This document shows positions 19,190 to 21,971 of a stretch of 24,774 nt of DNA, in pieces; position 1 is the first letter of the stretch, and the number at the start of each line of letters is the position of its first letter. The notes below the pieces were generated by a model. The model saw nothing but the letters and a program-made list of their open reading frames with translations. It was not told the DNA's origin and did not search any database. The translations under genes were made by a program, and so were the position numbers. The DNA is from a virus (taxonomy: Duplodnaviria; Heunggongvirae; Uroviricota; Caudoviricetes), in the IMG/VR virus record IMGVR_UViG_2778261448_000010, positions 1-24,774 of that record, one strand, 5' to 3'.

Positions 19190-19626
19190 AACCTCGTCTA
19201 GTTGTTCGCCATAGATTCAGTGGCAGGCGGTGACGAGTCCGCTTTTCGGGAGCTACCCTAGCCACTGCTTGATTCTATCCGATGTCTTTCCATCAGTCCG
19301 CCACCACAAAGAATCTTTTTTGCCATAAGGCAGGAGGTTCATCTTTCAGTGGCTGCCAGTGTTATTTCCCCACTTACTGGCTTGGGTTGCTTCGTGGTAC
19401 TGCCGTTAACTGGTTGCCCAGAATAAATTCCGGTTTCATTATCAAGCCCACCCGTAGATAGGCTTTGTAATGAACTGGCTCTTATCTCAACGCAGCCCCT
19501 TACCGCGCGCCAGATGCTCAATATCAAGCATCAGCAATGAGATGTTTAATCTGGATTCACTCCAGAAGTGATCACCACCCTGTCTACAGAGCCAGATGTG
19601 AAGGATGATGAGTAAAATTATCGCTA

Positions 19627-20064
19627 TCATAGAAGGCATTGCGTCCTGATGTATTCCTGCAAGTAGTTAACCTGCGCGGTTATCCTGTCGATTCCACTTC
19701 GGAGACGGTAATAATTGAGTTCAGCATCTGCTGTAAGTCTTGGGCTTTCTCCATCGCCCATGCTGCTGGCTCCGGTCGTTGACTTTGTACAGGTGGCGGC
19801 GACTTGCAGGCGCTTACGACCAGCAGAAACATCAGCACGGAGACTTTCGATAGTCGCGTTAGCATCAGCAAGCTCCTTTGTGTATCTGGCGTCGAGTTCT
19901 GCTACATCACGTTGACGCTTCTGCATGTCAGCGATGATGTACGTGGCCTTATCACGCTGCTCTTTGTAGGCGATTGCGTTATCACGGTAATGATTAACAG
20001 CCCATGACAGACAGACGATGATGCAAATAACCAGAGCGGAGATAATCGCGGTTACTCTGCTCAT
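19627..20064 (-). CDS. Rz: Rz i-spanin
   Basis: The 145-aa [40 protein letters not shown]... is near-identical to the lambda Rz N-terminus as I recall it. Its start overlaps the R stop (ATGA). Confidence 0.9.
19680..19871 (-). CDS. Rz1: Rz1 o-spanin lipoprotein embedded in Rz (+1 frame)
   Basis: The 63-aa ORF lies wholly inside Rz. It has a signal peptide with lipobox LVVSAC followed by a proline-rich segment, as in lambda Rz1. Confidence 0.8.
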
Positions 20065-20537
20065 ACCTCAATCTCTCTGACCGTTCCGCCAGCCTCTTTG
20101 AATTTTGCAATCAGGCTGTCAGCCTTATGCTCGAACTGGCCATAACCAGCGCCCGGCAGTGAAGCCCAGATATTGCTGCAACGGTCGATTGCCTGACGAA
20201 TATCACCGCGGTCAATCATCGGTAAAGCGCCACGTTCCTTAATCTGCTGCAATGCCACAGCGTCCTGGCTTTTCGGAGAGAAATCTTTCAGGACAAGCTG
20301 CTTACGATAGGCATCCCACCAACGGGAAAGAAGCTGATAACGTCCGGCGGCTGTTGATTTGAGTTTTGGGTTTAGCGTGACAAGTTTGCGAGGGTGATCG
20401 GAGTAATCAGTGAATAGCTCTCCGCCAACAATGACGTCATAACCATGATTTCTGGTTTTCTGTCGTCCGTTATCAGTTCCCTCTGACCACGCCAGCATAT
20501 CGAGGAACGCCTTACGTTGATTATTGATTTCCACCAT
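20061..20537 (-). CDS. R: Endolysin R (lambda-type lytic transglycosylase)
   Basis: The 158-aa [62 protein letters not shown]... is essentially identical to lambda R as I recall it. Confidence 0.95.
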
Positions 20538-20844
20538 CTTCTACTCCGGCTTTTTTAGCAGCGAAGCGTTTGATAAGCGAACCAATCGAGTCAGTACCGA
20601 TGTAGCCGATGAACACGCTCGTTATATAAGCGAGATTGCTACTTAGTCCGGCGAAGTCGAGAAGGTCACGAATGAACCAGGCGATAATGGCGCACATCGT
20701 TGCGTCGATTACTGTTTTTGTAAACGCACCGCCATTATATCTGCCGCGAAGGTACGCCATTGCAAACGCAAGGATTGCCCCGATGCCTTGTTCCTTTGCC
20801 GCGAGAATGGCGGCTAACAGGTCATGTTTTTCTGGCATCTTCAT
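20521..20844 (-). CDS. S: Holin S (lambda S107/S105 dual-start)
   Basis: The 107-aa [70 protein letters not shown]... matches lambda S, including the Met1-Lys2-Met3 dual start. RBS GGGGGTAAG lies upstream. Confidence 0.95.
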
Positions 20845-21392
20845 GTCTTACCCCCAGAAGGGGATCTGTTCAAATTAGGAATTATGGATATGGTCGCTTG
20901 AACAAATCCTGGTTACGGTTGATTTGTAACGGGTTTGTTCGTGACCGCATTCATGAGCAAATCATGCGTGGATTGCGCCAACAATACATGCCGCTCATAT
21001 CACGAAGCCCAGCCATTGATGCTGGGTTTTCTTTTTTAAAGCGCACTAGACCACCGTATCCACAGAGTGTCAGCAATGAGTTGGTTAGGTCTGGTTCTTG
21101 GTGGAAGTACGCTTTAAAAAATGGGCTGAGGGTTGTAGACCAAAATACTGAGGTAATGGTAATGGTGAAAAACGGTTTTGCTCTGGGTGGATTTGGCTGT
21201 GGTGGCCGGCGCTGATCTCCGGCTTGTATACAGGCACCTTGTTCTTCCGAAGCTCTCCTGCGCGCATCAGCCTGCGCATTCACCACACCGGAAAGAGCAC
21301 TCAGTTGTACCGGCCAGTTGTGCCACTAAGAAATGCTTTCGCAGACCGTTAAGCTCTTTGCCAGTTCTTTAATGCTCTTACCTGTTGTGCAA

Positions 21393-21436
21393 ACAAAAAA
21401 GCCACCGTTGCAACTTAAGAGTCACTAACGGCAGCT
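21393..21436 (-). terminator. tR'-like terminator of the short late-leader transcript
   Basis: On the minus strand a hairpin (AGCTGCCGTT...AACGGTGGCT, two mismatches) is followed by TTTTTTGTTTG, then by ...GCACAACAGGTAAGAGCATT, which resembles the lambda sequence just downstream of tR'. Confidence 0.55.
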
Positions 21437-21439
21437 TAC

Positions 21440-21476
21440 CCTCTAATTATGGCTAAATGGCTAACTGCATGTCAAG
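21440..21476 (-). promoter_or_regulatory. Putative late promoter P_R' overlapping the Q stop codon
   Basis: On the minus strand: TTGACA (21470-21475), an 18-bp spacer, then CATAAT (21446-21451). The Q stop TAG lies within the spacer. Confidence 0.5.
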
Positions 21477-21971
21477 GCTTTTAACAGCAACATGCTTAAC
21501 TTTCTCAACACGTTTACGCATTTTGAAAGCATTTTGCATTGGTTGGTACAAAACAAATAACGACGCTTTCAGGATGTCGTCAATTTCGTTTCTACAGGTT
21601 GCCAGTGAAGGTTTTCTCCATCCCTCGCCACCACGTCCACACATCTTGCGTGGCTTTGCAGTCGCGTGATAGTAGGATGCAATTGCTCGCTTAGATGAAC
21701 CATGAGCGTAGTAGCTGAGGAGGATGCCAAAGGCTTTCTTGTCAATGTACATGACGGAATCGACGACCTGAGAAATCAACATTCCATCATCATCATTGCA
21801 CATTGGCCTTGTCATAACTCTTCCCGGCTCTACGCTCTCCATGAACTTCGCTATTACGCTGCTCATACGCTTTTCCAGACGACCTGAATAAACCCATGCG
21901 CCCCACAGTTCAAGCCAGCCATTCAGCCACTCGTGCTGTTCTTTGGTGAGGTTTAGTTCTCTTATGCTCAT
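21453..21971 (-). CDS. Q: Late-gene antiterminator Q (phage 82/21-type family)
   Basis: The 172-aa ORF contains the motifs LELWGAW and RPMCNDDDGMLI, resembling Q-family antiterminators of lambdoid prophages. It lies immediately upstream of the late promoter and lysis genes. Confidence 0.7.
   Translation of the reverse strand: MSIRELNLTKEQHEWLNGWLELWGAWVYSGRLEKRMSSVIAKFMESVEPGRVMTRPMCNDDDGMLISQVVDSVMYIDKKAFGILLSYYAHGSSKRAIASYYHATAKPRKMCGRGGEGWRKPSLATCRNEIDDILKASLFVLYQPMQNAFKMRKRVEKVKHVAVKSLDMQLAI

Follow-up and report, generated by a model that had tools for sequence, protein, structure and literature searches.

What does a strong transcription terminator do when it faces against the operon in whose leader it lies? 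The window, that is, the whole stretch of DNA that was analysed (24,774 nt, 24.8 kb), belongs to a lambdoid, P22-like (HK620-like) phage, and all of its credible genes are located on the minus strand. The spacer between the antiterminator gene Q and the holin gene S contains a hairpin followed by a T-run, which an earlier note had described as a strong plus-strand intrinsic terminator oriented against late transcription. The gene context on which that description was based, a Q-S spacer with the late operon on the minus strand, is right, considering both the PHROG match of Q and the presence of a lambda-type S and of R and Rz. The following features surround the spacer:

19627-20064, minus strand: Rz, which follows S
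20061-20537, minus strand: R, which follows S
20521-20844, minus strand: S, a lambda-type holin with an MKM dual start
21389-21437, minus strand: late-strand terminator tR', a stem with UUUUUUGUUUG (-21.5 kcal/mol, z = -2.9)
21446-21475, minus strand: pR'-like late promoter, TTGACA-18 nt-CATAAT, with 11 of 12 consensus matches
21453-21971, minus strand: Q antiterminator of the 172-aa Q type (PHROG 'anti-termination protein Q-like', 1.8e-93)

The tR' terminator stands immediately downstream of the pR'-like promoter, and this promoter block is annotated as 'bsq4' beside the same Q type in phage CUS-3. The spacer is 608 bp long, is 98.5% identical to those of HK620 and HK633 over 545 nt and is matched in some part by 854 of 5426 complete E. 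coli genomes; among the matches listed, no annotation was found under the spacer in these genomes. The statement that it holds no credible ORF was borne out by the comparison with PHROG, where no family was found for the spacer ORFs, and by the RefSeq/GenBank records of near-identical spacers, which carry no CDS there. A protein-coding reading of the ORFs at 20951-21286 (minus), 21085-21279 (minus) and 20760-21215 (plus), none of which has a PHROG family, was rejected, and it is also ruled out by indels between homologues that are not multiples of three. A tRNA search found no tRNAs.

On the plus strand the terminator region reads CACGAAG from 21001, CCCAGC from 21008, CATTGAT from 21014, GCTGGG from 21021 and TTTTCTTTTTT from 21027 to 21037, and it is composed of three elements:

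21001-21007, plus strand: invariant CACGAAG, unpaired in the fold of the plus strand; TTCGTG at 20938-20943 is complementary to it, and lambda diverges at this point
21004-21030, plus strand: terminator hairpin with the core CCCAGC (21008-21013)/GCTGGG (21021-21026) and the loop CATTGAT
21027-21037, plus strand: U-tract TTTTCTTTTTT, whose first four T overlap the extended stem

The 6-bp core contains five G/C pairs and extends to 10 pairs around a loop of 7 nt, and in the tract UUUUCUUUUUU 10 of the 11 positions are U on the plus strand. A terminator scan, the kind of prediction that had been proposed as a check, called the hairpin with its extended stem (21004-21030) as the best plus-strand site. 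The plus-strand RNA of the hairpin folds with -14.4 kcal/mol (z = -3.4) and its complement folds more weakly (-11.3, z = -2.3), because the GAAG/UUUU(C) extension of the stem pairs only on the plus strand. On the minus (late) strand the hairpin is followed by CUUCGUGA, and the terminator signal is therefore unidirectional. Considering that a loose terminator scan of the window was not enriched (7 sites vs 7.2 expected), strict criteria were applied: the stem had to be a perfect 6 bp with five or more G/C, the loop had to measure 3-8 nt, and TTTT had to follow the stem at once, with nine or more T in 11. Under these criteria the hairpin is the only match on either strand of the 24.8-kb window, and no match appeared in 300 dinucleotide-preserving shuffles. 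Sequence, scan, strict criteria and fold confirm the signature of a strong plus-strand intrinsic terminator at 21008-21037; its orientation against late transcription is supported by the U-tract and the stem extension, each present on one strand, and is strengthened by the comparative data. As a prediction from sequence, the signature of an intrinsic terminator is complete in stem, in U-tract and in its more-than-chance occurrence.

The hairpin forms the distal end of a conserved non-coding block of about 190 nt, which in lambdoid and P22-like phages adjoins holin genes on their upstream side. The 188 nt adjoining S (20858-21045) match 112 phage records, among them HK022, Sf101, mEp234, epsilon34 and ST104, and 241 of 5426 E. 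coli genomes; E. coli HS, O26:H11 11368 and DH5alpha are among the strains with a genome match to the block. Lambda and Sf6 match this segment over the first 104 nt only. P22 also has a copy of the block, and so does HK620. About 90 unique copies were gathered from viral contigs and reference phages, and what a pattern search of contigs with GAACAAAN{18,46}TTTGTTCGTGA brought up was confined to chance matches from taxa that are not related. On the plus strand the block consists, in order, of the sdi-type hairpin, GGATYTGYTC, about 28 variable nt, GAACAAATCC, an apical hairpin, GGRTTTGTTC, a middle hairpin with compensatory changes, the invariant CACGAAG and the terminator. The structured elements of the block and of the adjoining leader segment are as follows:

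20851-20871, minus strand: sdi-type stem-loop CCCC UUCU GGGGG, which sequesters the S Shine-Dalgarno sequence, with segment A' (GAACAGAUCC)
20900-20940, plus strand: 5' stem-loop, in which the base GAACAAATCC/GGGTTTGTTC is invariant and the apical part varies yet stays paired
20952-20998, plus strand: middle stem-loop from the fold, CATGAGC...GCTCAT enclosing GCGTGGATTG...CAATACATGC, with compensatory changes at three pairs
21038-21115, minus strand: conserved leader segment P0, homologous to the P22E region, with a closing helix formed by AAAGCGCAC (21038-46) and GTACGCTTT (21107-15)

At least four different holin 5' ends are found downstream of the block, which always adjoins the sdi/Shine-Dalgarno hairpin of several unrelated holin types. 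In lambda, sdi regulates the dual start of S. The only prior label that was found for the block is in the GenBank record of CUS-3 (CP000711), where 241 bp upstream of S are named 'bsq3; boundary sequence' and overlap the match to the window spacer.

Among copies of the terminator type the stem is either CCCAGC/GCTGGG or, through a paired loss of 1 nt, CCAGC/GCTGG (about 10 diverged variants), and the loops are of at least seven different sequences. Every terminator-type variant has at least four T directly after the stem, within a T-rich stretch of 9-11 nt whose interruptions fall at varying positions, and the terminator scan, run on HK022 and on P22, independently picks out the corresponding site in both. 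The stem pairs are invariant and never covary, so that they are uninformative either way. In the block as a whole, changes on both sides were observed in 5 of 32 consensus pairs, located in the middle hairpin and a flanking helix, and the other strand folds about equally well. Homology continues for about 85 nt past the T-run at lower identity, which means that the T-run is not a border of a module.

If the terminator faces left, where would the transcript that it stops come from? The earlier note had placed the source on the lysis-gene side, and this part of its interpretation was not supported, as upstream, in R, S and Rz, the plus strand has neither a gene nor a consensus promoter; the orientation-specific terminator signature itself was supported. 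The conserved unit looks self-contained, with a promoter-like element about 137 nt upstream of the terminator, inside the S leader:

20866-20894, plus strand: weak sigma-70 promoter-like element with -35 CTGTTC (20866-71), a 17-nt spacer and -10 TATGGT (20889-94)

The predicted start lies at about 20900-20901, 5 nt after the -10, at the G that opens GAACAAATCC. The element is weak (three of six and four of six matches) and below the threshold of the scan, and no consensus promoter was called on the plus strand for the predicted antisense unit. The PasA locus, which has been validated by experiment, came out of the same scan without a consensus promoter as well, so that a negative result carries little weight. 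Inspection by eye for other sigma-70 hexamers or for motifs of sigma-E, sigma-32 and sigma-54 gave nothing convincing, as did an attempt to place a short AsxR-like unit with its start within the middle hairpin.

In non-lambda copies the element recurs as [C/T]TGT[T/C]C, 17 nt, nAT(g/a)(g/t)T, 5 nt and the G of GAACAAATCC. This geometry, together with A2, T3 and T6 of the -10, is kept in 11 of 13 unique non-lambda upstream sequences, P22 included, and copies differ from one another in the 3' half of the spacer and in the 5 nt that follow the -10. P22 itself has TTGTTC, 17 nt and GATATT, with 6 of the 17 spacer bases in common with the window. In lambda-type 5' regions the spacer is longer by an insertion of 4 nt, and the -10 reads GATTAC. 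The unique sequences are distributed between the two kinds of 5' region as follows:

Promoter-type 5' regions: no terminator 0, 6-bp stem 22, 5-bp stem 2, broken 0
Lambda-type and other copies without the -10 pattern: no terminator (lambda tail) 41, 6-bp stem 3, 5-bp stem 16, broken about 5

These counts are of unique sequences which are linked and phylogenetically non-independent, and it is only suggestive that the state of the terminator tracks the promoter type and that promoter and terminator appear to have been lost together. Copies of the HK022 type, in which the terminator is kept and the promoter geometry is absent, count against an antisense unit. Conservation of the -35 could also be explained by its part in an alternative RNA pairing.

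Taken together, our preferred reading, to which we give a probability of roughly 40%, is that the terminator ends a self-contained antisense transcription unit within the holin leader. From the observed terminator signature, conservation, promoter-like geometry and plus-strand fold we infer that an RNA is produced and that it has a role. The weak sigma-70-like promoter (-35 at 20866-71, -10 at 20889-94) would drive leftward, anti-late transcription that starts near 20900, at the foot of the 5' stem-loop (20900-20940); the transcript would continue through the second stem-loop (20952-20998) and the single-stranded UCACGAAG into the terminator (21004-21037). Hairpin and U-tract would act as a working Rho-independent terminator for leftward transcription and set the 3' end of the unit. 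The product, a prediction from sequence and fold, would be an RNA of about 137 nt (20900-21037), whose perfect complement is the stretch of the late mRNA leader at -56 to -193, counted from the start codon of S. Its pairing with pR' read-through or late transcripts may lead to cleavage of the duplex, or may shift the choice between alternative leader pairings beside the sdi/Shine-Dalgarno hairpin; in both cases the expression of the holin would be damped or timed. Alternatively, it could be a trans-acting sRNA of the Hfq type, like its positional analogues AsxR, AgvB, PasA and PasC. A more far-reaching version, which we consider rather doubtful, is that the holin leaders of lambdoid and P22-like phages, the model phages P22 and HK620 among them, contain an unrecognised and widely conserved antisense RNA gene of about 137 nt with a weak promoter of its own, two stem-loops and a Rho-independent terminator. 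Its RNA would pair with the leader, or shift the alternative pairings of the leader beside the sdi/Shine-Dalgarno hairpin, and in this way guard lysogens against leaky holin expression or tune lysis timing; lambda would have lost the gene.

The opposite strand has to be considered as well. On the one hand, folding of 20880-21040 gives -58.1 for the plus strand (z = -4.4) vs -43.9 for the minus strand (z = -2.35), and the z-score of the plus strand is the better one in 11 of 12 diverse variants. On the other hand, RNAalifold consensus folds are alike on the two strands (-64 vs -71), with the minus strand slightly better. The closing helix of P0 (21038-46 with 21107-15) covaries, and most of its wobble pairs, as read by eye from the alignment, belong to the sense strand; in the A'-B pairing all changes are compatible with the sense strand, and the other helices are mixed. 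Assignment of the strand from wobble pairs was rejected as decisive, since in the A' arm chance alone would produce this pattern with 8 of the 10 possible transitions. The leader also shows a three-way complementarity on the sense strand (20862-20871 with 20900-20909 and 20931-20940), in which GGAUUUGUUC (20900-20909) can pair either upstream with GAACAAACCC, forming the long hairpin, or downstream with GAACAGAUCC, overlapping the 5' arm of the sdi/Shine-Dalgarno hairpin. These alternatives are conserved in lambda too, and they could constitute a conformational switch in the holin 5' UTR.

An RNA of the sense strand is known from P22. P22E (BK000583 37964-38064; 701-801 of locus L362) is abundant in P22-infected cells and starts just after t-late (PMC13397905), and its 3' end lies inside the loop of the P22 copy of the hairpin. 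The same study lists ten P22 RNAs, none of them antisense at the holin-leader block (PMC13397905). P22E resembles the element described here in covering the homologous leader segment and in ending within the hairpin loop; it differs in belonging to the sense (late) strand and in lying on the Q side of the hairpin. The suggestion that the complement of the terminator forms a structured element in the late leader has thus gained some direct support, in that a sense RNA ends in the hairpin. The distance from the 3' end of P22E to gene 13 is 48 nt according to PMC13397905 and 180 nt in BK000583, where gene 13 starts at 981 of L362.

Three other explanations compete with the antisense unit. The hairpin may be a conserved structure of a functional late-mRNA leader, which controls the processing, stability or translation of the holin message, and the plus-strand T-run would then be the mere complement of an A-rich linker, AAAAAAGAAAA (A-R-N-type), between two helices. 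We regard this as possible, although somewhat unlikely. That P22E runs to the hairpin loop suggests processing of the leader there, and the wobbles of the P0 helix and of A'-B, while compatible with pairing in the sense RNA, turn into C.A or A.C mismatches when read on the plus strand; the extension of homology beyond the T-run, the constant position beside the sdi/Shine-Dalgarno hairpin of unrelated holins, the lambda-type middle hairpin, which is a terminator-like element in the sense direction, and the slightly better minus-strand consensus fold point the same way. However, the GAAG/UUUU extension and the unbroken run of at least four T after the stem make sense on the plus strand only, the plus-strand z-scores are better in 11 of 12 variants, the argument from wobbles is weakened by the chance pattern in the A' arm, and lambda manages without the hairpin. 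Either strand may be the functional one, and both RNAs may matter.

The same terminator signature and conservation would be expected of an insulator which has no dedicated RNA and which stops pervasive or spurious antisense transcription from the lysis and structural region before it enters tR', pR' and Q, in keeping with the earlier note. The HK022-type copies, with a terminator and no promoter-like geometry, fit such a role, as does the convergence of tR' and the terminator, which are about 100 nt apart in the short spacers of HK022 and P22. It is nevertheless improbable in our view: all credible genes of the window are on the minus strand and no plus-strand consensus promoter was found in R, S or Rz, so that an insulator would have little to stop, and both the structured, conserved 137 nt upstream and the fixed promoter-like geometry would be left unexplained. 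Untranslated antisense RNA is, moreover, usually handled by Rho anyway. It has been proposed that short conserved sequences at mosaic junctions serve as recombination sites (PMC3029335), and the block could be without present function, either as the relic terminator of a lost cargo ('moron') gene or as a boundary sequence that links the Q and lysis modules in homologous recombination. The 'boundary sequence' label on the 241 bp upstream of S in CUS-3, the mosaic breakpoints exactly at CACGAAG (lambda vs others) and the occurrence of antisense cargo genes in the Q-S spacer, such as nmpC in DLP12, agree with this. Yet an intact stem with variable loop, paired indel and U-tract across about 10 diverged variants is unlike a relic, neither the nmpC/ipeX terminator region nor the loci of PasA and PasC showed similarity, and a recombination linker requires sequence identity, not changes that preserve a hairpin. 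We give this explanation little chance.

How does the predicted antisense RNA relate to those already described in Q-S spacers? AsxR and AgvB are anti-sRNAs of EHEC lambdoid prophages, which have Rho-independent terminators and are located in the spacer downstream of pR', where they belong to convergent sRNA pairs; for AsxR, a position 3' of pR' and antisense to the late (Stx2) transcript is described (PMC4104026). AsxR and AgvB (RF02703/RF02702) are 51-60 nt long and lie beside cargo genes, whereas the predicted unit is about 137 nt, has two internal stem-loops and is situated in the holin leader. Neither family has a match in the window at the gathering score, nor any match in 20700-21600 at E <= 10. 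Over the spacer no Rfam family was found at the gathering score or at E <= 10; the only nearby match, at E = 5, was isrJ, and it covered the terminator only. In the comparison of Q-S spacers that had been suggested earlier, lambda is without the terminator and the EHEC RNAs are analogues by position that do not match in sequence.

PasA and PasC are Hfq-bound sRNAs of EPEC prophages in antisense orientation, and a holin gene comes right after the PasA locus (PMC8550237 table S6); the holin/lysozyme operon is typically found directly beside pasA and pasC (bioRxiv 10.64898/2026.05.13.724894). PasA occupies 743499 to 743415 on the minus strand and is flanked by an esterase gene and a holin gene, both of which are encoded on the plus strand. 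Like PasA, the element of the window is upstream of a holin on the opposite strand (56-193 nt from S), and PasA and PasC share with it an intergenic location, an orientation against the flanking late genes and, at the end, a GC stem (GCCAGC...GCTGGC in PasA and PasC) with a U-tract. PasA differs in being about 214 bp from the holin start and beside a sialate esterase gene, and its expression and Hfq binding are experimental, whereas the RNA proposed here is read from sequence. Blastn with word size 7 against the E2348/69 PasA and PasC loci (L005, L006) gave only chance matches of 10-19 nt (E >= 0.2), and no significant match was obtained against MG1655 573500-578500 (nmpC/IpeX, DLP12). Considering that there is neither an Rfam match nor similarity to PasA, PasC or IpeX, the element is a positional and architectural analogue and not a member of these families.

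The late leader of lambda is alike in the 5' and middle stem-loops and the sdi, which have their homologues at lambda 45,000-45,186 (the first 104 nt are about 72% identical), and in the arrangement of pR' and tR'. It differs in that it diverges right after CACGAAG and has no reverse terminator, and in the 4-nt spacer insertion with GATTAC in place of nATnnT. The bsq3 segment of CUS-3 (CP000711) is the same 241-bp block, next to a lambda-type S and the same 172-aa Q type, but its annotation names a recombination linker only and mentions no terminator, promoter or RNA. Transcriptomics of BTP1 was uninformative, as the late operon of that phage comes right after two central tRNA genes and STnc6030 is antisense to the tailspike gene (PMC7067206).

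Control of the holin sets the timing of lysis, which is among the best-studied fitness traits of phages, and the S leader of lambda is known for sdi and the dual start, not for an antisense partner. If the predicted RNA is real, it would be an overlooked regulator of lysis or a new prophage sRNA in P22, HK022, HK620 and hundreds of E. coli prophages, and it would join AsxR, AgvB and PasA/PasC, which already mark the Q-S spacer as a hotspot for such genes. If it is the sense leader that functions, the block would be a conserved structured holin 5' UTR with alternative pairings, and this is likewise undescribed.

Several further features of the leader and the spacer were observed. The complement of the lambda-type middle hairpin, GGCAGGAGG...CCTCCTGCC followed by GUUUUG, is a terminator-like element in the sense direction with a perfect GC-rich stem of 10-12 bp; it lies about 80 nt before S (L003 2106-2141; L127, lambda ~45,090-45,125), and the record of phage MG40 annotates it as a terminator. 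HK620 has an annotated late terminator 'tQ' (GGGCU...AGCCC then AUUUUUU; L002 2772-2798), which corresponds to 21116-21142 on the minus strand of the window. One stem base differs in the window counterpart (GGTCT vs AGCCC), and the stem of the tQ equivalent is therefore weaker there. A long inverted repeat, GGAAAGAGCAC ... ATGCTCTTACC, is located at about 21302-21385 on the S side of tR' and is common to lambda, HK620 and other spacers.

The spacer is itself mosaic, with a junction at the common AATGCTCTTACCTGTTGTG (about 21385-21452 in the window; compared in L002, L004 and L363). Up to AATGCTCTTACCTGTTGTG it is HK620-like, and beyond it come the tR'/pR' block and the 172-aa Q of the CUS-3 type; HK620 instead has a 207-aa Q of the lambda type. 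E. coli Z1323CEC0018 carries the HK620-specific segment together with the tR' block of the window, in a spacer that is about 260 bp longer (868 vs 608 bp).

Outside the spacer, the int-alpA RNA (Rfam RF02996) has a match at 19206-19268 on the minus strand, with 45.1 bits vs a gathering score of 35.8 (E = 1.7e-6), in the non-coding stretch from Rz to the small ORFs that lie ahead of the terminase small subunit on its upstream side. Descriptions of this motif normally place it beside integrase or alpA genes, and its location here, between Rz and the terminase side, therefore looks unusual.
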